Below, piece by piece: positions 2,892-55,039 of a stretch of DNA of 64,000 nucleotides (positions within the stretch are counted from its first letter, which is position 1; every line of letters starts with the position of its first letter). A program made the translations under genes and the position numbers. The stretch lies in the IMG/VR virus record IMGVR_UViG_3300022917_000009; one strand, given 5' to 3'. Under the pieces are notes generated by a model. It did no database searches. It saw only the letters and a program-made list of their open reading frames with translations, and had not been told where the DNA came from. This DNA comes from an uncultured virus (IMG/VR IMGVR_UViG_3300022917_000009) (lineage: Duplodnaviria > Heunggongvirae > Uroviricota > Caudoviricetes).

Positions 2892-3009
2892 CGTTCTCGG
2901 CGACAGCAGGAAACACGTCCTGCACTTGCTGGGGATACCGTTCTACGTCGAGGCGCAGGTGTATAATACGAAGGGCGAAATTGTGATGGACAACGGAGAA
3001 TTGATTTAG
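2593..3009 (+). CDS. hypothetical protein
   Basis: protein-like composition, ends just before convergent terminator; start uncertain. Confidence 0.45.
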   Translation: MQTSLPGTHRSPPRQAADIDIEKKMVILPTTWMSHTCRQSQVMGVALRIRVFNHKLLFSRETGVRYCCPHLTPNQARQLAANWEILILMKKAEATTLCHSVLGDSRKHVLHLLGIPFYVEAQVYNTKGEIVMDNGELI

Positions 3010-3065
3010 AACCCTCGCGGCGTCGGCGGTAACTACGGCTGCCCGGCAAACGAGCGAAAACCAAT

Positions 3066-3103
3066 CTCCCGCCGGGTCCACAACCTCGGCGGGAGTTCTA
3101 TTT
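3066..3103 (+). terminator. intrinsic terminator between convergent operons
   Basis: CTCCCGCCG...CGGCGGGAG stem followed by TTCTATTT. Confidence 0.65.
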
Positions 3104-6100
3104 CTACGGCGTTACGCGAGCAGCATCGGACTTTACCTTGGCCTCTTCAGCCGCCTTCTTGCGCTTCGTCTCCAACTCCTCGCGAGCGCGTTCGGCGAGT
3201 TCCACCTTCTTCTCGTTGAGTCCTTTAATCTTTTTCGACTTCTCGGCGCCGGTCATGTACGGGTCGTCGGCGATTTTGCGAATCTGCGCTTGCAGAGAGC
3301 CGAGGCGGGACACGACGTTGCGGAGCCGCGGGGCGCTGCGAATCGCGTCCTCATTCTCGGCGAGATACGCCTTCGCCTGCGCGTTCGTGAAGGCCCCCTT
3401 TCGAATCGTGGACAATCCGAGAGCCTTCTCCTCCGACTTCTTCGCCTCCTCGTAGACCTTGGAGACATCGGCGCTATACGAGTTGTCGGGGAAGGATACG
3501 AAGCTGGAAACGAGGCCGGAAGCGATGGGGATGTCCCGCATCGGGTCCAGCGCCAACGCCTCGCCGGGAGCCTTTGCCGCCGGGTCGCCTTGCTCGGATC
3601 GCGTCTGGATCATGCGGGCAACCAAGTCCGCGCCCTTGATGAGGTCGGAACCGAAAGCACCGAACAAGTCCTTGGTCATAGCCTCGATTCGCCGCGGGGA
3701 TGCCGCCTGCTTGAAGCGTTCGGGGAGTACGCCCGACAGCCCCTCGCCGAGAGCGCGCACACTCCGCGAAGTGTTCGGCCCGTACTGAAGAAACGGCTCG
3801 GAACCCAGTTCGGACTCCGGCACAATCGGACGCTGGGTGAACGGCTGGTAGTTCATGGACTGGTGCAGCATCGGGCCGAGAATGGGCACGTTCGATGCCG
3901 TGTCCACCGGGTCTATGGGGACTTGGAAAGTCTGTCCCATGTTGTAGAGCAGGCGATCGAGCAATAGCTTCCCGTCGGCGCGCTCCATTGCAAGGTCAGC
4001 CATGCGCTCGCCGAAGGTTCCGAATAGACCGAACTCGAAGGGTTTGCGTACACGCACGCGAATGGGCGCCTGCCCCTCGCCGGTGTTGATGAACATGGTC
4101 GTGTAGTAGTCCTTCGACCAGTCCTCCTCGCGCTGCATTTCCTTCGGATGGTTCGCCCAGTTCCACAGACGGTTCCCCGCCGCGGCGAGAGAGTAGGCCA
4201 CGCCGAACGCGAGGAACTTGGGCACGCTCTTCCCGAACATCTTGATCGTCGTGCTCTTGTCCTTGCCGGTAAGAGAACGGCCAATCTTCAGAAGCCCGGA
4301 CTGCTTGGCGCCGAAGAAGGGGAGTACGTCGGCCATGAATTTGATAAACGGATTCCGGCCTCGGCGCTGGTAGTTCATCACGTCGGCGCCACGCCAACCG
4401 GCCTCGACAGGATCAGCGCCCTGCGAGAGAGCGCGCTTGTGCTCGGCGAGGCGGACCATGTTCTCCGAAACGTCGCGGAGTTTTTCGTACCAGTCCTTGA
4501 AACTATCCCAGCTATCAATGAATACGTTCCCGCTACCGCCGTGCTCCTTCTCAATCGACGACTGAGCGCGCGCCCATGAGTCCTGCGGGGAGGAACCATA
4601 TCGGCTCCCCTGATACCCGCCGGAGGTCTTGAACCGCCAGTAATCCTGATTGCGCGTGTAGATGTCCCGTGCCGCCGACGCGACCTCCTTGGCGTAATCG
4701 GTCAGGCCGTACTTGCCGCGGCCCAGCGCGAAGGACTGCTGAAAGTCGGCGGGGATTTGGTTGAGCAGGAACTTCGGGTGCAGCGTCACAATGTCCTGAA
4801 ACACTCGGCGGAGCGTCTTCAGGATTTTGGGCGTGCTGCCTCCGGCGTTCGGGAACTCGGCGAGAGCCTCGTACAACTTCGGATTCTCAATCTTGAAGTA
4901 TGCACGCTTCCCGTCGCGCAGAGTCGTGACTATCCCCGCCTCCCGCATCTTATTCGGGGCGGAGCCGTACTGGCTCTGCACCTCATGGAACGGCAACTCC
5001 TTCGCCATACTGAATTCGACGAAGTTGTCCACGTTCTGATTCGCGGCGATGTTCTTCATGCCGTTCTGAATCAGATGGGACATCATCTGCACTTCGTTGT
5101 GGAAGAGGTTCCCGAGAGGGACATCCTTGCCCTTGATGGTCTGGATAGAGTCGCGCAGGTTCACCGTCCCGCGCTCATTCTGCGGGCCGTAGACTTCGGT
5201 GTAGTTGCCGCCCTCGTCCGCCTTCTGCCGGAAGAACGGGAGATAGAACTCGCGCTCCCACTGCTTGCGGATTTCGGGATTAACAAGCCCGGACTTCTCG
5301 GCGAAATCGAGGACGGACGTGCGCCACTTTTGAAGCTCTGCCGCCTTCTGAGCGACAGTGACATCCGTCCCCGGAATCTTCTGCTTGCCCAAGTCGGCGA
5401 ACTGCTTGGCCTCGGCGATGGAGAGATTCCGCTCTGTGCCGCGGACGTGCTCCTCCAAGGCGCGCTTGCCCATGGTGTAGGCGTACACGTCGTCTCGGTA
5501 TCCGGCCTTCACCGCGTCGCCCATGATGTCAGCGTACGACTTGCTGCCTTCGATGAGCTTGGGGGCGCCGTGCTCGTCTACGGTGTACTGCCCGTTCTTG
5601 TAGAACCCTTCGATGACACCGGAGGCGTTGCGAGCGTTCTCGGTCTTCTTGTAGCCGGATCGCCCGCCGTCCTCAAATATTCCATGGGCGAGTTCCACGG
5701 CGCGCACAGGGGCCTGAGCGTCGAAGAATTCCTGCTCGGCGTAGGCGCGCTTGCCGCCCGTCGCCTTCACGTCGGCGCCGACCTCTGCGCCCTTTGCGAG
5801 GAGTTTCTCCTTCATGCTCTTCGCCGAGTCCTCGTCGGACATCAGCCCGCCCTTCTTCTCGGCGACATCCTTCAGGCCCGGGTTGCGGTCGAAGAGCGTC
5901 TGCTTGATGGAGAACATGGGGCCGTACTCGTCTGCCGCACTCGCCCCGGCCTTCCCGCTGCGAACCTTTCCCTCGACGGTATCGAGCGCGCGAAGAACCT
6001 GCCCGGCCACGGTGTTGCGGCGAACCTTGTAGTAGACCTGCCGGGCGAAGTTCGCAATGCGCCGGAAGAGCGGGACGTTGGAGTCCTTCAGCCGAGACCA

Positions 6101-8335
6101 GAACCCGGTGTCCACCGCGTGCTTTTCAAACAGCCCGGCGAGCGCTTCCTCGCGGACCTTGGCTGGCGCCGGTTCCTCACCGAAGACCTTGCGGTGCATG
6201 TCGGTGTAGGCTGCTTCCTCTGCGCCGAGGTTGACGTTCTCTGCCGCCCATTCGCCGAACTCCTGCATCACTTCAGGGTGCTGGCGCGTGATGACGTGGA
6301 CAGCCTCGTGCGCGAGAGTGGCGCCGATGGGATTGCGCTCCCCGCCGGTCTTCACATTACCGGGAGCCACGTCGTAGTTGAGATGGATCGTGTCCTTGCC
6401 GTCGCGGCGAATCACCACACCGTTGATGGGCGAGCCGTCGGGCGCTTCTGACTTGAAGAACTGCACGTCGGCGCCGAGACGGGCACCGAGAGTGCGAGCC
6501 TGCTTGTGGACCGAAGTGTCGGCCTCGACGATCTTGCCGAGGTTAGAGGCGTCGGGCTTTGCGCCGGGCAGGATGCGTTCGGAGAGGGAGAGCTTCGGCT
6601 CTTCGATGACTGGCGGCGCCGCATCACTCGCCGATGGTGCCGCCTCGACGCCGCTTCTTGCGGGCTCGACGAAAGGGACTGTGCCCTCGGCGGACTCCTT
6701 CGGCGCCACGGGATTCGGAACTGCGGGCTCAACTTCTACTTTTTTCGACGCAGGCTTCTTGGCCGTACGCAGGAACGCAACGCTCTCTTCGGGAGAGGCA
6801 AGCACCCATCCTTCGGGAACCTTCTTCAAGACCTGACCGTCTGGCCCCTGCTTAAACTTTGGCGCCTTGCGCGTAACGTCGATGAAGTCATTCGCGACCT
6901 GCGGGCCGGGAGGGACAACTTCAGCTACGGGTTCCACCACGGGAGGCGCGACGGCAACCTCTTCCACCGGCTTGGGTGGAGACGGGGGAATCTCGATTGG
7001 AGCCACGCGCTTGCTGAGTTGTTCCTCGCGGACTGCATCGTCGAGTTCCATCGCCCGGCGGATCGGTTCTGCCTGTGACGTGTCGGTGCGAACCAAGGGC
7101 TCGGGGATCGGAATTAGTTCAGACTCGGGGGCGGCAACGGGAGACTCGACAGGAACCGCTTCATCCGTCGGCGCCGCCAACTCCACCGGACCCGCTTCCG
7201 CCTCCTTGAACTTCGCCTGCCCGTAGGGAATGACCTCTTCCACCGTCGGCGAGGTGCGAACGCGGTAGCCCTGATTGCCGGGGTCCAAGCCGAGAAACTC
7301 GCCTTCGGCAACGCTGCCATCGCCGAGAGTGACAAGCATCTTGGAACCGGCCAGCGCATCCGCCCGCTCCTTGCGAATCGCTGCCATCTCGGGATCGTCA
7401 GTGTAACTCGCCGTGGCCTCGAAAGCATCGTGCGCGCCGCCCACATTCTCGGGAGTCGCCTTGGCTACAATCTTGTCGCGCGCCGCCTTCTTCGCCCGCT
7501 TGGCCGCGCCCATCCCCATGAGACCACCATCGCCCATGCCGTGCATCGGGCCGGAGAACACAGAGCCGCCTGCCGTCGCTGCCAACACGCGCGGGATACT
7601 GATTTTGCCCGTCTCGGCCTTCTCGCGGTACGCCTCCATGCCGCCCTGAATGCCTCCGCCCATGAGGTTGCCAGCCGCGCCCACAATGCGGGGATCGTTG
7701 GCCGCCTCCTTGGCGCCCATCTTCGCCATGCCCATTAGCGTCTTGATGTCTGCCGCGGGATTGGTCGGACGGAATGTTGCAGCCGCGGGGGCCAAATCAC
7801 CGGCGAGAGCGGACCACGGGTTTTCCTTCCGGGACGCGCCGCGGAGTTCCTCGTACTTGCGCTGGGCGTCGGGGCCGGAGCCGAAGGTTTCGGATTCCTG
7901 AATGTATCCCTGCGCCTTGTCTCCGGCAATGCCGCCACCGATGCCGCCGAGGATGCCACCGGCCAGCATGGTAAGCGGGTTCATGCCGAGAGCGCCGAGG
8001 CCAGCACCGGTCGCCGCGCCAGCACCGATGCCCGTCAGCGTGGGCACAACTCCCTCAACCGCCTCGTTGGCGAAGGTGTCCCAAGCGCCGAGGGGTTCGG
8101 TCGTGAGAGCCCGCTTCCGCGCAGGGTCCGGTGCAATGCCGGGAGCGCCCATGCCGGAAGCGCGCGCACCTGCCGAGGTCTGCCGCAAGCCACCCACAAA
8201 CTCGGGGTCGCTCTGCTCGGCGTGCTTCATAATCAGCGGCTCAAGCTCCTTCTCGTCATCGTCGAGGAGCCCGGCGTTCAACCGCTTGTAGAAGTCGCGA
8301 AGTTCGGCCTTGTCGATTTCAGTAAGAGGCATCAC
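3104..8335 (-). CDS. large polyvalent/ejection (internal virion) protein with zincin-like HExxH and C-terminal LPD38-like domain
   Basis: 1743 aa; Gly-rich hydrophobic N-terminal segment; LAHEAVH...EEALA; RKPFEFG...PFTQRPIVP...YGPNTS...SPRRIE..LFGAFG; last gene of virion module. Confidence 0.7.
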   Translation of the reverse strand: MMPLTEIDKAELRDFYKRLNAGLLDDDEKELEPLIMKHAEQSDPEFVGGLRQTSAGARASGMGAPGIAPDPARKRALTTEPLGAWDTFANEAVEGVVPTLTGIGAGAATGAGLGALGMNPLTMLAGGILGGIGGGIAGDKAQGYIQESETFGSGPDAQRKYEELRGASRKENPWSALAGDLAPAAATFRPTNPAADIKTLMGMAKMGAKEAANDPRIVGAAGNLMGGGIQGGMEAYREKAETGKISIPRVLAATAGGSVFSGPMHGMGDGGLMGMGAAKRAKKAARDKIVAKATPENVGGAHDAFEATASYTDDPEMAAIRKERADALAGSKMLVTLGDGSVAEGEFLGLDPGNQGYRVRTSPTVEEVIPYGQAKFKEAEAGPVELAAPTDEAVPVESPVAAPESELIPIPEPLVRTDTSQAEPIRRAMELDDAVREEQLSKRVAPIEIPPSPPKPVEEVAVAPPVVEPVAEVVPPGPQVANDFIDVTRKAPKFKQGPDGQVLKKVPEGWVLASPEESVAFLRTAKKPASKKVEVEPAVPNPVAPKESAEGTVPFVEPARSGVEAAPSASDAAPPVIEEPKLSLSERILPGAKPDASNLGKIVEADTSVHKQARTLGARLGADVQFFKSEAPDGSPINGVVIRRDGKDTIHLNYDVAPGNVKTGGERNPIGATLAHEAVHVITRQHPEVMQEFGEWAAENVNLGAEEAAYTDMHRKVFGEEPAPAKVREEALAGLFEKHAVDTGFWSRLKDSNVPLFRRIANFARQVYYKVRRNTVAGQVLRALDTVEGKVRSGKAGASAADEYGPMFSIKQTLFDRNPGLKDVAEKKGGLMSDEDSAKSMKEKLLAKGAEVGADVKATGGKRAYAEQEFFDAQAPVRAVELAHGIFEDGGRSGYKKTENARNASGVIEGFYKNGQYTVDEHGAPKLIEGSKSYADIMGDAVKAGYRDDVYAYTMGKRALEEHVRGTERNLSIAEAKQFADLGKQKIPGTDVTVAQKAAELQKWRTSVLDFAEKSGLVNPEIRKQWEREFYLPFFRQKADEGGNYTEVYGPQNERGTVNLRDSIQTIKGKDVPLGNLFHNEVQMMSHLIQNGMKNIAANQNVDNFVEFSMAKELPFHEVQSQYGSAPNKMREAGIVTTLRDGKRAYFKIENPKLYEALAEFPNAGGSTPKILKTLRRVFQDIVTLHPKFLLNQIPADFQQSFALGRGKYGLTDYAKEVASAARDIYTRNQDYWRFKTSGGYQGSRYGSSPQDSWARAQSSIEKEHGGSGNVFIDSWDSFKDWYEKLRDVSENMVRLAEHKRALSQGADPVEAGWRGADVMNYQRRGRNPFIKFMADVLPFFGAKQSGLLKIGRSLTGKDKSTTIKMFGKSVPKFLAFGVAYSLAAAGNRLWNWANHPKEMQREEDWSKDYYTTMFINTGEGQAPIRVRVRKPFEFGLFGTFGERMADLAMERADGKLLLDRLLYNMGQTFQVPIDPVDTASNVPILGPMLHQSMNYQPFTQRPIVPESELGSEPFLQYGPNTSRSVRALGEGLSGVLPERFKQAASPRRIEAMTKDLFGAFGSDLIKGADLVARMIQTRSEQGDPAAKAPGEALALDPMRDIPIASGLVSSFVSFPDNSYSADVSKVYEEAKKSEEKALGLSTIRKGAFTNAQAKAYLAENEDAIRSAPRLRNVVSRLGSLQAQIRKIADDPYMTGAEKSKKIKGLNEKKVELAERAREELETKRKKAAEEAKVKSDAARVTP

Positions 8336-36130: not shown

Positions 36131-36755
36131 TGTCCTCGTCGTCTTTCCATCCGACCGGCGACTCGTCCCGTATGGGGACACTGTCAATGGCCTCGATGGA
36201 TCGCATCAGAGAATTTTGAGGGAGTGCTGTCAAGGCTTCCATCGTTTTCTGCGGGAGTTCCTTCCCCGTAGCGCGACGACTGGAGACCGTGATGTGGACG
36301 GTATCCGTGTTAGCCTTCTCGCGCTCGCGGAGGATCATTTTTATGGAGCCCATGTCGCCACGCTGGGCGCGGGCGTGGACGTGGTTCATCAGCCGGGCGA
36401 TCATCTCGTCCTCGGCCATCATGCACTTCATGTTGAACCGGGCGTCGCGCTCTCGCTGGGCGGTGAAGGCGATGAAGTCCACGGCGCAATCGTCGCAGAT
36501 GAACGGCCACGTCACGGGCGGATCGTCGGGATTCGCGTCCTTGCCGTTTCCATTCCCGTGATGCTTGGCAGAGCCGCCAATCTTAGTCTGCGCCAGCGAC
36601 CGAACCGCATCCTGATACCGCGTCACCAGTTCGGACTTCTGAATCGCCGTGAGGGGCTCTATCTCTTGCAGAATTTCTTGCCTTATCTGCGCGAGGGCTT
36701 CGGGACTTCTTTCGTCTTCTGGAAACTCCGGTCGAGCGATTAGTTCGGTAGGCAT
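36093..36755 (-). CDS. putative terminase small subunit
   Basis: immediately upstream of and overlapping terL; AQRGDMGSIKMIL helix motif; strong RBS. Confidence 0.55.
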   Translation of the reverse strand: MPTELIARPEFPEDERSPEALAQIRQEILQEIEPLTAIQKSELVTRYQDAVRSLAQTKIGGSAKHHGNGNGKDANPDDPPVTWPFICDDCAVDFIAFTAQRERDARFNMKCMMAEDEMIARLMNHVHARAQRGDMGSIKMILREREKANTDTVHITVSSRRATGKELPQKTMEALTALPQNSLMRSIEAIDSVPIRDESPVGWKDDEDNGEKKGQRRRRP

Positions 36756-37617
36756 CCTCTGTGTTCGACTCCTCTCTGTTTTCCTGTCCCGGCATCGCAC
36801 GCGTCAGCAGGGCGCGGCCCTCGAATTCGTCTACTCTGTCCAATGGGTTCGCGCTGTCAACACGCCCGAACCGATCCATCTCCCGGCGCTGGAAGGCGAG
36901 GACGGCTATTCGCAGAGGGGTTGACTCCCAATGGCTCCCGTCCCGGCGCCGATAGTCGCGCGCGTTCACCTCGCGGCAAATCTGCGGCCACGTCATGTTG
37001 TAGGGCGGGCTCATCAGCGTAACGCCGAGGAGCATGATCCTGCGCTCCTTGGGGTTGTACTCCAGTTCCACCATGGGGGTCTTGGTGCGACTCACGACGG
37101 TAGACTGGGCGCCGATGACGTACCCGTAAGGAGGCACGCGATTCGCCGGGAACAGCCCTTGGATGCGCCGAGTGCGGAGCCCGGCCCGCGTGCTGTGGGA
37201 AATCTGGCGGCGTGTCATCTCGCAGCCGAGACCCATGATCGCAGTGAGAACGCCGCGCCCATGAACCGTCGAGGTGTCGATGCCCTCTTGCACGAATTCG
37301 ATGTCCGCCTTCCCGGCGAGTTCGTCGTCGAGGAGAGAAAGCAGGTCTTTCGTGTCGCGGGAAATTCGATCCATGCGGGAAACAACCAGAACGCCGTGAA
37401 CACGAACCGCATGGTCCACGGCGGCACCGGCGCCCTCCCGGTCCATGATGGGCACGCCGCCACTGGTGTTGGTGTCGCGATAGACTGCGGCGACGGTGTA
37501 CCCGCGTGCCCGGCAGTAGTCCCGGCATTCGCGCTCTTGCGTCTCGTGAGAGAGGCCCGGGCGCCCGGCTTCTTCGCGGGAGAGGCGGGTGGAAATGACG
37601 GCGATCTTGTTGCTCAT
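36583..37617 (-). CDS. serine recombinase (resolvase domain plus short recombinase domain)
   Basis: ISTRLS catalytic motif, S..TQ...C, D..TSG..DREG, VSRMDRISR, PPYGY. Confidence 0.85.
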   Translation of the reverse strand: MSNKIAVISTRLSREEAGRPGLSHETQERECRDYCRARGYTVAAVYRDTNTSGGVPIMDREGAGAAVDHAVRVHGVLVVSRMDRISRDTKDLLSLLDDELAGKADIEFVQEGIDTSTVHGRGVLTAIMGLGCEMTRRQISHSTRAGLRTRRIQGLFPANRVPPYGYVIGAQSTVVSRTKTPMVELEYNPKERRIMLLGVTLMSPPYNMTWPQICREVNARDYRRRDGSHWESTPLRIAVLAFQRREMDRFGRVDSANPLDRVDEFEGRALLTRAMPGQENREESNTEDAYRTNRSTGVSRRRKKSRSPRADKARNSARDRAPHGDSEVRTGDAVSGCGSVAGAD

Positions 37618-40927: not shown

Positions 40928-40959
40928 TGGGCGCCCCTTCCGTTTAAGATGCCGCAACC

Positions 40960-41050
40960 CCGCCCTTTCCCCGCCGCCGGGTCAAGGACTATTTCGACGC
41001 GCGTCCACAATTATCGTTGACGCGCCGAGCGGGAGACGGGGAGGGTGCGG
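40960..41050. promoter_or_regulatory. divergent promoter pair
   Basis: TTGACC on minus (40980-40985) and TTGACG on plus (41017-41022) between divergent operons. Confidence 0.5.
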
Positions 41051-42092: not shown

Positions 42093-42280
42093 CGCAACTC
42101 GACGTTCTGTACATCGCCATCGCCGTTGGGGTGGCTCTTCAAACCCTGAAGGAATTGCCCGGCCATCCGCTGTACCACAAGATAATCGTCGGCATCATAC
42201 TTGGCTCGATATGGCCGCTATTCCTCGGAGGAATTCTGGTTCGGATGGACGTGTTCCTTGTTAGAATGAGCAAGCCATGA
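42089..42280 (+). CDS. small membrane protein
   Basis: two hydrophobic helices. Confidence 0.5.
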   Translation: MTQLDVLYIAIAVGVALQTLKELPGHPLYHKIIVGIILGSIWPLFLGGILVRMDVFLVRMSKP

Positions 42281-42654
42281 CGCCCCTCTCCCCCTGTCCG
42301 TTCTGCGGCTCCACCGACCTGAAACTCACCTTTGGCGTGGTCTTCGCCATCTGGTGCAAGAACCCCGAATGCCGAGCGACTGGCCCCGAGGGAGAGACCG
42401 AGGAGGACGCGTGGAAGAACTGGAACAAGCGCCACGAGGCCCCGAAGGGATTCTACCGAGGAGACATAGGAAGCTCCAGTGAGATGTTGATATTTACCCC
42501 TGACGGAATCGTCACCGAGGATGGGAAGCCCTTTGGCGCCGAGGGGAACAAGGCCATCGGCTCTGGAAGTGACATGCTCACCTCCCGTACTGTCACACGT
42601 AGTGAACCATCGCCACCCCAAGGAGACGGGACAGATGCCGAAGTTCAAAGTTGA
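42277..42654 (+). CDS. Lar-family restriction alleviation-like protein
   Basis: LSPCPFCGS...C..C.ATGP....EEDAWKNWNKR. Confidence 0.7.
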   Translation: MTPLSPCPFCGSTDLKLTFGVVFAIWCKNPECRATGPEGETEEDAWKNWNKRHEAPKGFYRGDIGSSSEMLIFTPDGIVTEDGKPFGAEGNKAIGSGSDMLTSRTVTRSEPSPPQGDGTDAEVQS

Positions 42655-43726: not shown

Positions 43727-43980
43727 GCACCACCCGCATAATCCGCAACTCCGCCCGGTGCCTGTCCTGCGGCGAGGAGGTGGAGTCGAAGTCCCGATGG
43801 GATTACGTGGTGTGCTCATGCGGAAAGCTCGCGGTGGACGGGGGGCGCGACTACCTGAAGCGCATCACCAAGGGCCGCGATGACTACGAGGACACCAGCC
43901 AGACGATCACCGTCGAAGACCCGATGGTTGATCCGCCAGCGCCGAAGGAGCAGGAAGATGGCAGAGATAAGACACATTAG
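43723..43980 (+). CDS. zinc-ribbon phage protein
   Basis: NSARCLSCGEEVES..DYVVCSCGKLAVDGG.DYLKR. Confidence 0.65.
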   Translation: MSTTRIIRNSARCLSCGEEVESKSRWDYVVCSCGKLAVDGGRDYLKRITKGRDDYEDTSQTITVEDPMVDPPAPKEQEDGRDKTH

Positions 43981-44200
43981 GAGAAGGCAATTATACGCCA
44001 AGCACACCCTCTGCTTCTGGTGCGAAAAACCACTACTCAGAAGCGAAACCACCGTAGATCACCTAACCCCACAATCTCGGGGAGGAACTTTTTTCTACGG
44101 GAACCTTGTTCTTTCATGCGGACCATGCAACAACAAGCGCGGAGCCAGTGAGCCCACCGAAGAAGACTTCCGGCGCCAAGAAGAGCTTTACGGCCCATGA
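43958..44200 (+). CDS. HNH endonuclease
   Basis: CFWC...TVDHLTPQSRGG...NLVLSCGPCNNKRG. Confidence 0.85.
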   Translation: MAEIRHIRRRQLYAKHTLCFWCEKPLLRSETTVDHLTPQSRGGTFFYGNLVLSCGPCNNKRGASEPTEEDFRRQEELYGP

Positions 44201-45687: not shown

Positions 45688-45912
45688 ATGGCTACTCAAC
45701 TCGAAAAGATTCAACGCGCTTTGGATGCAGGGGTCGTCAATCAAACGGACCTCGCGAGCGCCAGCGGGGTACATCGCCTCACTGTTCATCGCATTCACAA
45801 GCAGCCGGGATTCGATCCGCGCTGGAGCGACGTGATAAAACTGCATCATGCGCTGGGGAAGATTAAACGGCAAGTACAGGCGCACGCCCGCGGCAAGCGG
45901 GGTGCGGAATGA
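45688..45912 (+). CDS. Cro/XRE-like HTH regulator
   Basis: NQTDLASASGVHRLTVHRI...PRWSDVIKL. Confidence 0.7.
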   Translation: MATQLEKIQRALDAGVVNQTDLASASGVHRLTVHRIHKQPGFDPRWSDVIKLHHALGKIKRQVQAHARGKRGAE

Positions 45913-47873
45913 GCGCCCTCGAACGCATCCCCGTCCAACTCCCGCCGCACAACATGGAAACCGAGGCCGCAGTCCTGGGCGCCATGCTGATGGACAACGA
46001 CGTGATCCCCGATGTCCTTGGGATCGTTAAGCCCGAAGACTTCTATTTCGAGGGCAACCGAATCATCTGCGCGGCCATGGGCGAAATCTGGAACTCGGGA
46101 AGCCCCATAGACCTAACGCTTCTCGCAAACCATCTGCGCGAGCGGAAACTTCTCGACATAGCTGGCGGCGCCCTCCACATAGCCTCTCTTGAGCAGTACG
46201 TACTTTCCAGCGGAGCCGCGCCAGAAAACGCCCGTATCGTCGCGAAGATGGCCGAAGCGAGGCGGCTCTTCGAATACTGCCGGAAGGTTGTGACCGGGGA
46301 AATCCCGTGCCTAAACGGCACCATGGCGAGCACTCTCCGCGACGGCGCCATGATTATCAACGGCGCCCAGAAGCGCCTCGCGATTCGCCGCGAACTGAAA
46401 ACCGGACGCCCCGTCCTGCCAACATTCCCGGTTAACTGCCTGCCGGATTGGCTGGCGCGGTTTGTCGGCCAAGTCTCGTGGGCAAACGAAGCGAACATCG
46501 ACATGTGCTGCTTGCACGCCCTCGGAGTGATCGGCGCCGCACTTGGTGGCCGAGTTCGATGCAACGTCTACGACGATTGGTACGAAGCCATCCAGTTGTA
46601 TCTGCTCACCGTCCTTCCCCCTTCCGACCGGAAAACCAAGGCAACCTCGGAACTCATGCGCCCTGCCGACGACTACGAAGATGACCGGGAGCGCGCCCAC
46701 AAGAAAAAGGCCCGAAGCGCCGCCAAGATGATCCCGTTTTTGAAGAACAAGGTAAAAGCCCTCCAAAAGGAAGCTGCCAAGGGACCACAGGCTCGCGCAG
46801 GAACAGACACGGAACTCGAAGCGGCAGAGACACAACTCGACCTTGCCGAATCCGAGTCGGCCCCATACCGGTATTTCAACAACACAAACCCGACTCCCGA
46901 GTCACTGTGCGCCTGCATGGCCGCGAACAACGGGCGCGGCGCCATCATCACAGACGAAGCAGAGGTTTTCAACACGATCAGTTGGCGCGACGGATCGGCC
47001 AATCTGGGCATCTACCTGAACGGGCACACCAACGCGAAAATTGTGGAGAGTAGAAGCGCCGGGGACCGCATCATCAAATCCGCCGCCCTCACCATCAGCA
47101 TCGCCGCCCAGCCAGCAATGCTCGAAACCCTCGGGAAGGTGGCCGGGGGACGGGGCCGAGGATTCTTCGCCCGGTGGATCATTGCCTGCCCGGAATCTAG
47201 AATCGGATACAGGGAATCAACCTTCGGACGCGCCGTGGAAGACCACGTTCGCGAAACCTACCGGACCCAAGTTCGGAAAATGTACGAAATGCCCGACCGC
47301 GATGACGGGCATCGCTACTACATCGTCAAGTTCTCCAAAGAAGCCGCAGAACTCATGCGGGACATGGACGAATCGCGTGAGCACCGCCTCCGAGAAGGCG
47401 CCGATCTACACTCTTTGGGCGATTGGGCCGGTAAATACACCGGAATGGTCGCCCGGATCGCTACTATCCTACATTTCGCCGAGCATGTGTACGGGGAATT
47501 CGACGCCCGCGATGTAATCCGCAAAGACATCAGCCAAGAATGCTTGGAAAAGGCCGCGGAAATCGGCGAATACTGCATCGAACACATCAAACACGCCTAT
47601 TCCGTCATGGGAGCCGATAGCAGCGGAGCCATGGACGACGCCCGGAAGATCATGGGCTGGTGCGAAAAGACCGGAAACACCGTTTTCGAGCCGCGAGACA
47701 TCCAAATCGCCTTCCGATGGTGGAAAGCCGACGCGGAAAAGATGGAACAAGCCCTCTCCACTCTCGTCGCGAACGGATGGCTCGAAGAGGAAGAGGTCCG
47801 CCCCCCGAAAGGTGGTCGCCCAAAGCGCGTTTTCCACGTCACCGGGAGCATCGAAGAGACCATCAAGGAGTAA
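45909..47873 (+). CDS. replication protein: DnaB N-terminal domain fused to DUF3987/YfjI-like helicase domain
   Basis: PPHNMETEAAVLGAML (DnaB-N); LPPSDRKT, TPESL, DEAE, AQP, GRGFFARW; C-terminal wHTH GGRP. Confidence 0.8.
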   Translation: MSALERIPVQLPPHNMETEAAVLGAMLMDNDVIPDVLGIVKPEDFYFEGNRIICAAMGEIWNSGSPIDLTLLANHLRERKLLDIAGGALHIASLEQYVLSSGAAPENARIVAKMAEARRLFEYCRKVVTGEIPCLNGTMASTLRDGAMIINGAQKRLAIRRELKTGRPVLPTFPVNCLPDWLARFVGQVSWANEANIDMCCLHALGVIGAALGGRVRCNVYDDWYEAIQLYLLTVLPPSDRKTKATSELMRPADDYEDDRERAHKKKARSAAKMIPFLKNKVKALQKEAAKGPQARAGTDTELEAAETQLDLAESESAPYRYFNNTNPTPESLCACMAANNGRGAIITDEAEVFNTISWRDGSANLGIYLNGHTNAKIVESRSAGDRIIKSAALTISIAAQPAMLETLGKVAGGRGRGFFARWIIACPESRIGYRESTFGRAVEDHVRETYRTQVRKMYEMPDRDDGHRYYIVKFSKEAAELMRDMDESREHRLREGADLHSLGDWAGKYTGMVARIATILHFAEHVYGEFDARDVIRKDISQECLEKAAEIGEYCIEHIKHAYSVMGADSSGAMDDARKIMGWCEKTGNTVFEPRDIQIAFRWWKADAEKMEQALSTLVANGWLEEEEVRPPKGGRPKRVFHVTGSIEETIKE

Positions 47874-49421: not shown

Positions 49422-49682
49422 ATGGCGAACGCGACACGCACCCCAATCATCCGGGCAGCGGCCCACGAGTTGAGCGATTATCAGAATGCGGGCACCGGAT
49501 ATGGCCGCACGATTCCCAGTGGGGAGTTTATCGTGGTTGCCCGCGACGCTCGCGGGGACGAGTGGCAACACTCCGCGCTCTTGCCTCGCGATGCGGCGGA
49601 GACGCTTGCGGCAAAGGTGCGTGAGGTGGGGAGCATCAACCGCGCGCATTGGACGGAATTTCGTGGCGTGACAGTCCGCTGA
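49422..49682 (+). CDS. first early gene, hypothetical
   Basis: AGGAG RBS after long AT-richer non-coding region. Confidence 0.6.
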   Translation: MANATRTPIIRAAAHELSDYQNAGTGYGRTIPSGEFIVVARDARGDEWQHSALLPRDAAETLAAKVREVGSINRAHWTEFRGVTVR

Positions 49683-49757
49683 CAGGTCGAAACGCCTCTT
49701 TGGCGTCCGATGGTTTTGCCATCGCTGACGAGACCAAATCCCGCGACGTTAGCGGAC
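49674..49757 (+). ncRNA. hammerhead ribozyme, type II
   Basis: GGUC-GAAA-CGCC/GGCG-UC^-CGAUGG(UUUUG)CCAUCG-CUGACGA-GACC; distal stem GUCCGCUGAC/GUUAGCGGAC. Confidence 0.92.
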
Positions 49758-49779
49758 ACTAGACGAGAGAGACGAGACA

Positions 49780-50019
49780 ATGACAATCAAGCTGCATATC
49801 GTGGCAACAGGGCGCGTGGCACCGTACGGGATCAATGAGACCGTGGAGACGCGCAAGGCCACAACGGCGGAAGGCGTGCGGCGAGTGCTGACTGCCGCGC
49901 ACAAGTCCGGGCATCAAGTAATGGCGTCCGAAATCGACGCGGCCAAGTGCGCGGTTTTGCGGCATGGCGTGACGGTGCCCGCAATGTCCGGGATGGTCCG
50001 CATCCTCGCCGCCTGCTGA
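49780..50019 (+). CDS. hypothetical protein
   Basis: purine-rich RBS; sits between two ribozymes. Confidence 0.6.
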   Translation: MTIKLHIVATGRVAPYGINETVETRKATTAEGVRRVLTAAHKSGHQVMASEIDAAKCAVLRHGVTVPAMSGMVRILAAC

Positions 50020-50023
50020 TAAT

Positions 50024-50093
50024 CGCAGAGCACGCGCGGCCCTTTACCATCCGCGCCGCGCGCAATGCGGCAAGCCGGGTTGCAAGCCCCGGC
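50024..50093 (+). ncRNA. twister ribozyme, P5-type permutation
   Basis: GCA-GA-GCA, P1 CGCGCGGC/GCCGCGCG, C^AA-UGC-GGC, P4 GCCGG-GUUGCAAGCC-CCGGC; L4 UGC pairs with GCA (T1). Confidence 0.8.
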
Positions 50094-50122
50094 GAAACTC
50101 AAATCACTTCGGAGAAATCACC

Positions 50123-50299
50123 ATGCAGGCACGAATCGAAAACGGCAAACTCATTATCGAAATCGCCCTGATAGATGCCGTTCCATCTTCCTCCGGGAAG
50201 TCTCTTTTGATAGTCCAAGGCGGAGCGCAAAAGCCGGGGATTCAGCACATGGGGCGCCCGGTGACGGTGTCGGTCAACGCCTTCATCCCCGCGAAGTAA
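50123..50299 (+). CDS. 58-aa conserved small protein (PSSSGKS motif)
   Basis: MQARIENGKLIIEI...PSSSGKSLLI...VTVSVNAFIP; GGAG RBS; below ORF cutoff. Confidence 0.65.
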   Translation: MQARIENGKLIIEIALIDAVPSSSGKSLLIVQGGAQKPGIQHMGRPVTVSVNAFIPAK

Positions 50300-50344
50300 G
50301 CGAATCCACTTTTCACCCTCGCCGGACCATCCAAGGAGACTTCC

Positions 50345-50488
50345 GTGCACGTGCTCTTGCTCCATCCCCTAATCGCTTTGGCCTTCCTCGCGGCAGACGA
50401 CCGAAACCTATTTGCCGACTTCGCCGCTTCGCAGGTTTGGGCAATGCATTCGCAGGGCTTCCAAGCTATCGTTTTGGAGGGGTTTTGA
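50345..50488 (+). CDS. small hypothetical protein
   Basis: AAGGAG RBS, GTG start, TGATG coupling to AAA+ gene. Confidence 0.45.
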   Translation: MHVLLLHPLIALAFLAADDRNLFADFAASQVWAMHSQGFQAIVLEGF

Positions 50489-51123
50489 TGCCAACCCTCG
50501 CCGACAAATACCGCCCCGCGACACTTGACGACCTCGCCGGGTTTGACGACGTGAAGGGCAAAATCCGCCGCATACTTGCGCGGGGAAATGGGGCAGGCGG
50601 TCGCGCGTGGTGGCTGTCGGGACCGTCGGGAGTAGGCAAGACTTCGGCGGCCCGCATCATCGCCGCAAGCCTCGCCCATCCGGCATCCGTGCGGGAAATC
50701 GACGCGGGCACGCTGACTTGCGCGGCCCTTGAAGACATCGCCGACTCTTGCGCCTCCCGGTCAATTTTTGTGCCGCACGGCAACGCGCTAATCGTGAATG
50801 AAGCGCACGGGTTGCGAAAGGACACAATCCGCCGGTTGCTTGTGTGGCTTGAGGATTTGGCGCCGTGGACGACCGTTGTTTTCACCACGACAACCAAGGG
50901 GCAGATGTCCCTCTTTGAAGACCATCACGACGCGGCGCCACTCCTCTCGCGCTGCCTGTCGTTTGACCTCGACACGAAGGGCCAAGTCCCAGCCTTCGCC
51001 GCGCATTTGGGGAAGGTCGCCGAACGCGAGGGCATCCCCGTAACTCTCGACGCGTTGCGGTTCATGCTCGCGGGGAAGTCCAATAATCTCCGCGCGTGCT
51101 TGATGGAATTGGAAACCGCCTAG
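50488..51123 (+). CDS. clamp-loader-clade AAA+ ATPase (DnaX/RFC-like, no collar domain)
   Basis: LADKYRP, GPSGVGKTS, IVNEAH, LLSRC, NLRAC. Confidence 0.85.
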   Translation: MPTLADKYRPATLDDLAGFDDVKGKIRRILARGNGAGGRAWWLSGPSGVGKTSAARIIAASLAHPASVREIDAGTLTCAALEDIADSCASRSIFVPHGNALIVNEAHGLRKDTIRRLLVWLEDLAPWTTVVFTTTTKGQMSLFEDHHDAAPLLSRCLSFDLDTKGQVPAFAAHLGKVAEREGIPVTLDALRFMLAGKSNNLRACLMELETA

Positions 51124-51181
51124 CGCTTCCGCGCGCTTCGCACCTCGCCGCCCGCAGGAAAGGCCAAGGAGGCCAAGGACA

Positions 51182-51334
51182 GTGGAGCGAATCACCGCCG
51201 CACAAGCTCAGATTATGAAGCAGGTTTGCCTCATTGATCAAGTACTTGGAAAGGGGGGCGTCGAGATTGCGGGAATTCACGACGCACAGGCAGAGGATTG
51301 GGCGCGAGCAGAATGGAGCCGCGCCAACCCCTAA
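51182..51334 (+). CDS. small hypothetical protein
   Basis: AAGGA RBS, GTG start, stop just before hammerhead. Confidence 0.45.
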   Translation: MERITAAQAQIMKQVCLIDQVLGKGGVEIAGIHDAQAEDWARAEWSRANP

Positions 51335-51340
51335 CTCCCC

Positions 51341-51397
51341 GCCCTGACGAGACTCCCTTGGCCGGAGTCGAAACGCCGCGAGGCGTCGGCAATGCCA
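51341..51397 (+). ncRNA. hammerhead ribozyme, type I with pseudoknot
   Basis: GCC-CUGACGA-GACUCC(CUUGGCC)GGAGUC-GAAA-CGCC(GCGA)GGCG-UC^-GGC; loop II UGGC pairs with 3' GCCA. Confidence 0.92.
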
Positions 51398-51417
51398 GAT
51401 GACAAGGAGAAACGGAA

Positions 51418-52188
51418 ATGGGATTCCAAGCGGTCCATGAGGTGAAAGAGGCGAAGGCCAAGCGCCAGGAGCGGGCGGCTTTTTACACGCCGTTGTCGCT
51501 CGTTGCCGAATTGGTGGAATGGGCGGCGCCAATGCCCTCCATGCTCTGCCTTGAGCCATCGGCGGGAGACGGGCGGATTGTCCACGCGCTCCGAGAGGCT
51601 GGCGTGCGCGTGGTCCATGCCTGCGAGATTGACGACACAATGCGGGCGAAGTGTGAGAGCGAGGGCGCAACGATCCTCGGCGCTGACTTTCTCGCGGTTC
51701 CTCCCTCGGCGATTTACGACCGGGTTTTGATGAATCCGCCTTTCATCGGCGCCACGTACCGCAAGCATATCGAGCACGCTTTCCGGTTCCTTCGCCCCGG
51801 CGGCATGCTCGTTGCCATCGCCCCCAGCAAGGCAGAATTCGAGGTGTCCCAATCCGAATGGACATTGCCCGGCTGTGAAAATGTCGCATTCGAGCGCGTG
51901 GAATCCGAACGGTTCAAGGAGGAGGGGACGAACATCGCGACGATCATTGTCCGCATCTATGCCCCCGACGACCACCCCGCACCGCTTTACGATTGCAGCA
52001 ACTACGCGACGGGTAACGCCGCCGTGACCGTGGGAAGCAATTGCGAGACATACGAAGCCATCCGCCGCGACCCTGAGCGCGTGCGTGAGATTTCCCTCCC
52101 GTACATGCGGGGCTTTGGCCTCACGGGCTACGGCGTAAACTGGCAAGAGGTGCGGGAATATATCTGCGGTGAGGACGGCGACCAATGA
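51418..52188 (+). CDS. N6-adenine DNA methyltransferase (orphan)
   Basis: FYTP, LEPSAGDG (SAM binding), MNPPF catalytic motif. Confidence 0.85.
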   Translation: MGFQAVHEVKEAKAKRQERAAFYTPLSLVAELVEWAAPMPSMLCLEPSAGDGRIVHALREAGVRVVHACEIDDTMRAKCESEGATILGADFLAVPPSAIYDRVLMNPPFIGATYRKHIEHAFRFLRPGGMLVAIAPSKAEFEVSQSEWTLPGCENVAFERVESERFKEEGTNIATIIVRIYAPDDHPAPLYDCSNYATGNAAVTVGSNCETYEAIRRDPERVREISLPYMRGFGLTGYGVNWQEVREYICGEDGDQ

Positions 52189-52577
52189 AAACTGCACAAA
52201 CCGAATACGTGGACTATCGCGCCCGCGCCGCTGCTGAATTTGCCGAACGCATCACGGCGTTAGGCTTCACGGTCTACCTCGCCGAGTCGGGCCGGTATGG
52301 ATTTATCACAGACAACACCGAGAAGCGCGTTCTAAGCTTTTCTTTCGATGGGATAGAGAACGCGCTAAGCGGCAACTATGGCCCTCCCAGCACTCAGAGC
52401 GGAACCGGTTGGCGCCTCGACTTCGGCCCGGAATCGCTGCAATCGAAAGAGGATGTCCGGCGCGCGCTCTATGCCCTTCCGGCGTTTTGCGGTAACGGCT
52501 GGAAGTACCTTACAACCGTCAAGCAGCACCTCGCCGAATATGGCGCATCGTCGCGCTACACCAAGCATGGAGCCTAA
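52185..52577 (+). CDS. hypothetical protein
   Basis: ATGA overlap. Confidence 0.6.
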   Translation: MKTAQTEYVDYRARAAAEFAERITALGFTVYLAESGRYGFITDNTEKRVLSFSFDGIENALSGNYGPPSTQSGTGWRLDFGPESLQSKEDVRRALYALPAFCGNGWKYLTTVKQHLAEYGASSRYTKHGA

Positions 52578-52579
52578 CA

Positions 52580-52665
52580 GCCCGAAACTCCCCGCCTTTA
52601 CATTCACTTCCACTTCCGCGCGGGGAGTCTGGCGGTTTTGCCGCCACTGAAGAGCCCGAAAGGGC
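52580..52665 (+). ncRNA. hammerhead ribozyme, type II, aberrant stem II
   Basis: GAAA-CUCCCCGC/GCGGGGAG-UC^-UGGCGG(UUUUG)CCGCCA-CUGAAGA; stem II interrupted by 8-nt GCCCGAAA. Confidence 0.7.
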
Positions 52666-52704
52666 CTTGGGGCAGTGCAACGCAGGGATCAAGGAGACGG
52701 ACCG

Positions 52705-54922: not shown

Positions 54923-55039
54923 TTCTGCCCGCCTCGAAGCCCCTCGCCTGCGGCAGCAAGAACACGTCGCGCGTCGCAGGTCTGAGGCTTCAGGGCGCGC
55001 AGGGTTGGCGCTAGAAGGACACGACAAGGAGAGCCGAAC

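Follow-up and report, generated by a model that had tools for sequence, protein, structure and literature searches.

Four self-cleaving ribozyme motifs in the spacers of a replication-gene operon of an uncultured phage

In prophages, hammerhead ribozymes flank single genes or short gene blocks, and it has been proposed that they process transcripts into operon- or gene-length messenger RNAs (mRNAs); which genes they flank varies from case to case (Perreault et al. 2011, PMC3088659; cited throughout for the parts of its text on which we draw). According to the sections used here of a 2016 review of twister ribozymes, many twister RNAs and hammerheads are no more than a few kb apart (PMC5408937), and a 2019 review (Weinberg, Weinberg and Hammann), likewise drawn on in part, states that bacterial self-cleaving ribozymes are often close together and that processing of polycistronic transcripts has been suggested. 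Here, we describe an array of this kind in a stretch of 64,000 nucleotides (nt), hereafter the window, of the IMG/VR record IMGVR_UViG_3300022917_000009 (Caudoviricetes), the source of which looks like an uncultured temperate phage. Four spacers of its replication-gene operon each carry one self-cleaving ribozyme motif on the plus strand: a type II hammerhead (site 1), a twister (site 2), a type I hammerhead (site 3) and an off-consensus type II hammerhead with an insert (site 4).

The array resembles the prophage clusters of Perreault et al. (2011), as far as the parts of that paper used here describe them, in that several sense-strand ribozymes are clustered between phage genes in a few kb, in its type II hammerheads with a pseudoknot between loop I and the 3′ tail, and in the processing of a long transcript proposed for it. 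It differs from them in mixing a twister with two hammerhead topologies, in one member with a 16-nt insert at the junction of core and stem II, and in belonging to a phage without a close sequenced relative. From the co-location of twisters and hammerheads in bacteria (Roth et al. 2014, as related in the portions used of PMC5408937 and PMC6765202), there is no essential difference; here, the twister lies ~0.3-1.3 kb from the hammerheads, near phage-type genes. With at least two ribozymes within a few kb, intergenic, on the sense strand and in a phage context, the locus belongs among the ribozyme arrays that flank phage genes. It is compact, packing three classes or topologies into 3 kb of a replication module, and it adds an example, not a principle; the 16-nt insert in site 4 is the only feature of the array that could be new.

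Site 1 occupies positions 49683-49743, site 2 50024-50091, site 3 51337-51398 and site 4 52577-52676. On reading the sequence, the distance from the upstream stop codon to the start of the element is 2-6 nt at all four sites: stem II of site 1 begins at 49685 (stop codon 49680-82), the twister at 50024 (50017-19), stem I of site 3 at 51341 (51332-34) and the outer helix of site 4 at 52577 (52575-77). Further downstream, AGGAG or GGAG lies ahead of the next start codon at three sites, and site 1 has only a purine-rich GAGAG stretch there. The predicted cuts fall after 49707, 50063, 51387 and 52629, so that the pieces between them would measure 356, 1324 and 1242 nt. The initial annotation, made from the letters of the sequence, had put four ribozymes on the sense strand between genes, each within a few nt of a stop codon, with these cuts, piece lengths and gene contents, and all of this was borne out by our own reading, a descriptor scan and the Rfam, Pfam and PHROG searches; its statement that every element precedes a ribosome-binding site (RBS) holds for three sites and is weaker for site 1. 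What is shown are the motifs, with their strand and placement, and the families to which sequence and structure assign them.

The 356-nt piece between cuts 1 and 2 carries a single small gene of 79 amino acids (49780-50019, plus strand; neither Pfam nor PHROG gave a match). Cuts 2 and 3 enclose a block of plus-strand genes (50123-51334) that consists of small open reading frames (ORFs) at 50123-50299, 50345-50488 and 51182-51334 together with a clamp-loader-like AAA+ ATPase (50488-51123; Pfam AAA, 1e-6; PHROG 5846 clamp loader, 9.8e-24). The block between cuts 3 and 4 (51418-52577, plus strand) comprises a DNA methyltransferase (51418-52188), recognised by PHROG DNA methyltransferase families (best 1.5e-19) and by weak Pfam methyltransferase matches, and an ORF of 130 amino acids (52185-52577). 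The 1242-nt piece and the fourth cut hinge on site 4, the stem II region of which differs from that of all relatives examined.

The twister is the one ribozyme that Rfam reports at its gathering score in the whole window: 50024-50091 matches Twister-P5 (RF02684) with 50.2 bits, the gathering score being 37.6 (E 1.8e-7 over the whole window), over model positions 1-58 of 58. In the alignment, the conserved blocks of the consensus are matched, including the loop nucleotides and the adenine conserved at the cleavage step. Twisters cleave at an N-A step, of which the adenine is conserved and the 5′ nucleotide is not (PMC5408937, in the section used here); the predicted cut in site 2, between C50063 and A50064, is such a step, with C-A instead of U-A. 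Judged by this alignment, site 2 is a genuine type P5 twister, for which self-cleavage is predicted.

Reading of the sequence reveals hammerhead cores at the three other places named in the initial annotation, and the window was also scanned with a descriptor that combines CUGAnGA, GAAA, UH and three stems. On the plus strand of the window it returned exactly sites 1, 3 and 4, and on the minus strand one weak match with stems of 3, 2 and 4 bp. When all stems were to have at least 3 bp, two matches were observed against a mean of 0.04 in 100 dinucleotide shuffles of the window, one of which reached two; with thresholds set to the observed strengths, none of the 100 shuffles contained any match, nor did any in a relaxed class that takes in both type II sites, 1 and 4 (at least 5 bp each in stems I and III, at least 1 bp in stem II). 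Sites 1 and 3 have the complete hammerhead core (CUGAnGA, GAAA, UH and a three-stem junction), with stems of 3-7 bp and a stem II that adjoins A9 and G12 without an insert of more than 1-2 nt. Site 4 has all core nucleotides and stems I and III, but not a stem II adjoining the core in this way.

In site 1, a 4-bp stem II (49685-88 with 49732-35) is followed by GAAA (49689-92), stem III (49692-96 with 49702-06) and C17 (49707), directly 3′ of which the cut is predicted; then come stem I (49708-13 with 49719-24), closed by the loop UUUUG, the core CUGACGA (49725-31) and an A-rich 3′ tail (49736-38) that can pair with loop I. Sites 1 and 4 have in common the 6-bp stem I with its UUUUG cap, and a type II pattern of fixed spacing built on this stem and loop found 101 stretches in viral contigs (105 matches, including the two in the window). 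Stem I is paired at five or more of its six positions in 34 of the 105 matches, and 31 of these 34 have GAAA and stem III as well. Stem II measures 4 bp in 28 of the 31 and 3 bp in one; the rest are site 4 and a member in contig L026. The latter was rejected as a second stem II outlier: a duplicated distal GAAA had been misleading, and the proximal GAAA gives a 4-bp stem II. In L026 (~2990-3080, minus strand), a tandem duplication of GAAA and the 5′ half of stem III lies upstream of a canonical hammerhead and again points to local duplication in such elements.

The matches from viral contigs thus define a type II subfamily in which stem I, capped by UUUUG, has 6 bp and stem II has 4 bp. Its layout is identical in site 1, which on these grounds is a canonical member; with site 4 it has in common the core, stem I, loop I, stem III and a flanking CAG. 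Like the sites in the window, the viral relatives often have a stop codon directly 5′ and an RBS directly 3′. A covariance model (R1) was made from 24 distinct type II sequences from viral contigs, none of them from the window, and scored with filters off: site 1 obtained 64.8 bits (E 2e-14) and site 4 41.3 bits (E 2.4e-8), the next-best match in the window 10.7 bits. The 4-bp stem II, GAAAC, stem III and the flanks lie outside the pattern by which the sequences for R1 were found. Clustering occurs in this subfamily too: in a 50.6-kb viral contig (L078, 2344-3951, minus strand), three of its hammerheads lie on one strand within 1.6 kb. In contig L050, one type II hammerhead may be flanked by two type I-like elements, both of them weak matches. 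In two otherwise canonical members, in viral contigs L358 and L362, a single additional U separates A9 from the first pair of stem II.

Site 3 is laid out as a type I hammerhead, with a stem I of 3 bp (51341-43 with 51388-90), the core CUGACGA (51344-50), stem II (51351-56 with 51364-69), GAAA (51370-73), stem III (51373-77 with 51382-86) and C17 (51387), the cut being predicted directly 3′ of C17. Loop II (51358-62) can form a pseudoknot with the tail (51394-98), and the equal pairing is found in L265 and L341. A search of viral contigs with stem III of site 3 as the pattern yielded more than 130 stretches among the matches listed; among these (132), L265, L307, L341 and L342 are near-twins that have in common with site 3 the 3-bp GCC/GGC stem I, the tail and the pseudoknot of loop II with the tail. 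Across the wider type I set, this pseudoknot varies on both sides. A type I covariance model (R2) from 102 viral-contig sequences, none from the window, gave site 3 46.3 bits (E 1.8e-12); the next match in the window, at 13.6 bits, is the half of site 1 with GAAA and stem III. Among the matches listed, several viral contigs carry two or three type I hammerheads each.

We propose that sites 1-3 are genuine self-cleaving ribozymes that cut a long phage message and so punctuate the operon, with a probability of about 0.6. The replication module would be transcribed from the plus strand as one long message, in which sites 1, 2 and 3 would fold during synthesis and cut after 49707, 50063 and 51387, without the need for a host RNase. 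Every upstream piece would then have a ribozyme hairpin with a 2′,3′-cyclic phosphate as its 3′ end, and every downstream piece would start with a 5′-OH. After cleavage of a type II hammerhead, the upstream piece would end in stem III and the downstream piece would begin with stem I. The type II hammerhead and the twister would both add a 5′ hairpin ahead of the RBS; on cleavage at site 3, a type I hammerhead, nearly the whole ribozyme stays upstream, and the downstream leader consists of 30 nt that are almost unstructured. Having their own ends, the gene blocks would presumably also have their own stability and translation.

In phage T7, host RNase III cuts the spacers of the early genes and leaves 5′-phosphate and 3′-OH ends. 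The likeness lies in cuts in the spacers of a polycistronic phage message and in hairpin-ended pieces; the difference is that here the RNA would cut itself, leaving 5′-OH and cyclic-phosphate ends. The segmentation of mRNA independently of proteins, as put forward in the initial annotation, fits the anatomy (sense strand, after stop codons, before RBSs, hairpin ends); the extension to circular mRNAs that accompanied it is unsupported, as set out below. The idea of processing is not new, being the existing hypothesis of Perreault et al. (2011). Arrays with exact cut sites and gene blocks such as this one lend themselves to asking whether phages set the stoichiometry of gene blocks by RNA-only processing.

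Several points weigh against this reading. Aligned end to end, the three hammerheads remain below the Rfam cut-offs: site 1 scores 19.1 bits and site 4 22.9 bits with Hammerhead_II (RF02276; cut-off 37), and site 3 14.9 bits with Hammerhead_1 (RF00163; cut-off 34). These alignments come from runs on short stretches of 81-141 nt; a permissive Rfam scan of 3.7 kb found no hammerheads beyond the twister. The check with Rfam covariance models that the initial annotation had proposed thus upholds the twister and leaves the hammerheads sub-threshold. In a calibration on 20 viral loci with clear members of the type II subfamily, Rfam at gathering score reported a hammerhead in only one (L055) and model R1 recovered the hammerheads in all 20, for which reason the sub-threshold scores are weak evidence against the sites; the same Rfam scan found no twister in these 20 loci. 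The scores with our own models are in turn partly built in, since the training set of R1 was fished with a pattern from sites 1 and 4, and that of R2 with the site 3 pattern. Scans of viral contigs with the methyltransferase and the AAA+ protein found no syntenic relative, blastn with 3.7 kb gave no match to deposited phages, and tblastn with the helicase encoded upstream of the array returned 336 records, every one below 60% identity and none covering 80% of the query; no covariation at the four loci themselves is, therefore, at hand. A scan for promoters and terminators counted 6 and 20 sites, where shuffles average 5.1 and 20.8, and with counts no higher than in shuffles, it does not delimit the transcription unit. 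That the operon is transcribed as one message and that this is cleaved in vivo, like the fate of the products and an effect on expression, are points that we infer from the sequence, and the purpose of bacterial and phage ribozymes is described as unproven and still to be defined in the part used of the 2019 review (Weinberg, Weinberg and Hammann).

The same motifs could serve other ends. They might mainly tune expression down or apart, when cleavage uncouples translation and exposes one side to decay, so that neighbouring gene blocks are set to different levels. The leaders do differ, an almost unstructured one of 30 nt after the type I hammerhead as against a 5′ hairpin after the type II hammerhead and the twister; sequence alone does not distinguish such tuning from processing, and we regard it as an unlikely main role. 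Less probable still, and in our judgement very unlikely, is that the motifs are passengers of mobile gene cassettes with no role in phage expression. That the identities of hammerhead-flanked genes vary (Perreault et al. 2011, in the part used here), that most of the flanked genes here have no family match, and that sites 1 and 4 look like paralogues with equal loop I and layout are all compatible with passengers, but three intact architectures set precisely between stop codon and RBS would be hard to keep without selection.

The least probable alternative concerns the ends of the pieces. The 5′-OH and 2′,3′-cyclic phosphate left by self-cleavage are the substrates that RtcB joins, so that a host ligase of this type might close the pieces between two ribozymes into circular mRNAs. 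The end chemistry suits this, and three pieces would have a ribozyme at either end (two, should site 4 fail to cut). On the other hand, Pfam finds no RtcB or other RNA ligase among the 61 ORFs scanned, although ~10 kb of the contig lie outside the window and a host enzyme is possible; the termini are not complementary, and no other feature would draw them to one another. For the prophage hammerheads, circular or spliced products were sought and none detected (Perreault et al. 2011, in the part used here). Nothing in the sequence favours circles, and we consider their formation highly improbable.

Site 4 calls for separate treatment. GAAA (52584-87) is followed by a 9-bp stem III (52587-95 with 52620-28) with a loop of 24 nt, C17 (52629), directly 3′ of which the cut is predicted, a 6-bp stem I (52630-35 with 52641-46) with the loop UUUUG, and the core CUGAAGA (52647-53); the order of blocks, from GAAA over the cleavage site to CUGAnGA, is that of an ordinary type II hammerhead. 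Between core A9 and the 3′ strand of an outer helix (52577-83 with 52670-76), there is an insert of 16 nt (52654-52669), in which a hairpin of 4 bp closed by a GAAA loop (52654-65) is followed by a linker of 4 nt (52666-69). Canonical relatives of the subfamily have the 3′ strand of stem II at offset 0 or 1, and site 4 has it 16 nt downstream of A9. Without these 16 nt, the element would read as a canonical member, flanks included, and descent from the same type II subfamily as site 1 is the best explanation of its sequence. The label "aberrant" given to it in the initial annotation is apt, the stem II region being off-consensus. A 9-mer that comprises a stem II strand and GAAA occurs twice, at 52579-52587 and at 52653-52661, the second copy consisting of A52653 and the first 8 nt of the insert; this repeat at the GAAA block and at the start of the insert hints at local duplication as the origin of the insert.

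The predicted fold of site 4 has a minimum free energy of -45.3 kcal/mol (z-score -3.2) and pairs 52580-83 (extended by 52577-78) with 52670-73 (extended by 52675-76). With stems I and III fixed and the core kept single-stranded, the 24-nt 3′ segment folds to -43.1 kcal/mol, against a mean of -35.95 kcal/mol for 1000 shuffled segments, 0.7% of which fold as well. The pair probabilities are ~1.0 for the insert hairpin and at least 0.98 for the outer helix. Two other readings, site 4 as a hammerhead nicked between 11.1 and G12 and a pairing of 52580-83 with 52662-65, were rejected, the latter having a pair probability of 0.0.

We looked for further copies of this arrangement. A metagenome scan gave, among the 118 matches listed, none with both a paired stem I and the hairpin, and in a scan of a genome collection, one of seven matches (L354) was a real subfamily member, of canonical form. 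A scan of viral contigs that placed no constraint after the core flagged 30 distinct sequences. The 4-nt complement of the 5′ strand stands at offset 0 in 23 of them and at +1 in two (L358 and L362); the other five are L379, with a 3-bp stem II, L369, in which the distal GAAA produced an artefact, and L360, L365 and L385, weak look-alikes with a 3-bp stem III that were set aside. L369, a counterpart of L026 with a duplicated distal GAAA, was rejected as a non-canonical member. None of the 30 sequences has a long insert after A9, and no relative examined has one of more than 1 nt. A literature search for branched or insert-bearing hammerheads found, judged by the titles listed, no paper on such a variant.

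It is somewhat probable that the 16-nt insertion at the junction of A9 and G10.1 disables site 4 and that the array makes only three cuts, the insert being a mutational scar or a stabilising hairpin; in that event, the methyltransferase block would stay joined to the downstream genes. In the canonical register, stem II would pair GCCC with GCCC, which gives an outer and an inner pair with two C-C mismatches between them; the descriptor match counts a stem II of 1 bp in this register. The other real members of the subfamily examined keep a stem II of 3-4 bp at offset 0, or at +1 in L358 and L362. According to Eckert et al. (2023, PMC10085705), CUGAnGA is at most 1-2 nt away from its stems in all known hammerhead alignments, and small changes around stem II and the pseudoknot cut hammerhead activity by orders of magnitude (Perreault et al. 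2011, in the part used here). The minimum-free-energy fold also pairs core bases with the linker, and in the unconstrained ensemble A6, N7 and G8 pair with 52666-68 at probabilities of 0.6-0.83, a pairing that would inactivate site 4. Against a disabled site stand the 11 of 11 core nucleotides, the perfect 6-bp stem I and the perfect 9-bp stem III, all intact, as they would hardly be after long neutral decay; the 3′ segment, which restores a 4-bp helix with the 5′ strand and is more ordered than 99.3% of the shuffles; and the single-nt inserts at the same junction in the apparently intact L358 and L362. On balance, we take site 4 to be impaired a little more readily than not, and hold its predicted cleavage activity to be doubtful, if a real prospect.

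More specifically, an active site 4 could be a hammerhead with a four-way junction, in which the GNRA-capped 4-bp hairpin after A9 would replace stem II and a second helix of 4-6 bp (52577-83 with 52670-76) would tie the GAAA strand back in. On the modelled fold, we rate this as rather unlikely. If it were true, it would be an exception to the rule that CUGAnGA and GAAA always adjoin their stems and would constitute a new connectivity class of natural hammerheads. The non-circular permutations SGC, CSG and GCS (Eckert et al. 2023, PMC10085705) are likewise natural hammerheads off the connectivity of types I-III; in contrast to them, site 4 keeps the type II order G, S, C, and the interruption lies inside a block, which was assumed there not to occur. 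In such an active element, the ability of the linker to pair with core A6 to G8 might also provide an internal switch that turns the last cut on or off. Whichever way it behaves, site 4 offers an inexpensive case for how much the junction of the hammerhead core tolerates.

The window has a G+C content of 60%, and the single sequencing run found to contain this DNA comes from a leaf-litter metagenome, possibly its source. Very large structural-type genes lie on the minus strand, and a long run of plus-strand genes extends from ~41 kb onward. Around the array, the replication module includes a helicase with DnaB N-terminal and DUF3987 domains (45909-47873, plus strand; Pfam and PHROG), the clamp-loader-like AAA+ ATPase and the methyltransferase, in addition to a serine integrase (36583-37617, minus strand; Pfam and PHROG scans). 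A search of a large protein database with the helicase returned the protein itself, recorded on a contig of 73.9 kb, and two distant homologues. Most other proteins of the window, including most of the ribozyme-flanked genes, have no family match in Pfam or PHROG.

A long imperfect hairpin of 82 nt (54923-55004, plus strand) lies in the same operon, in a spacer directly ahead of an RBS (z-score of the spacer fold -2.7). Rfam returned for it only microRNA-precursor look-alikes far below threshold, i.e., it is a plain hairpin, and it could be a protein-dependent (RNase III-type) processing site or a stabilising site in the same message. Another long hairpin (40958-41044, z-score -2.9), without an Rfam family match, lies in the divergent region between the minus-strand and plus-strand gene blocks and may belong to an operator or terminator region of the phage switch. 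The early region on the plus strand also encodes a Lar-like restriction-alleviation protein and an HNH endonuclease (42277-42654 and 43880-44200), and a minus-strand protein of 1743 amino acids (3104-8335) contains an LPD38 (large polyvalent protein) domain.

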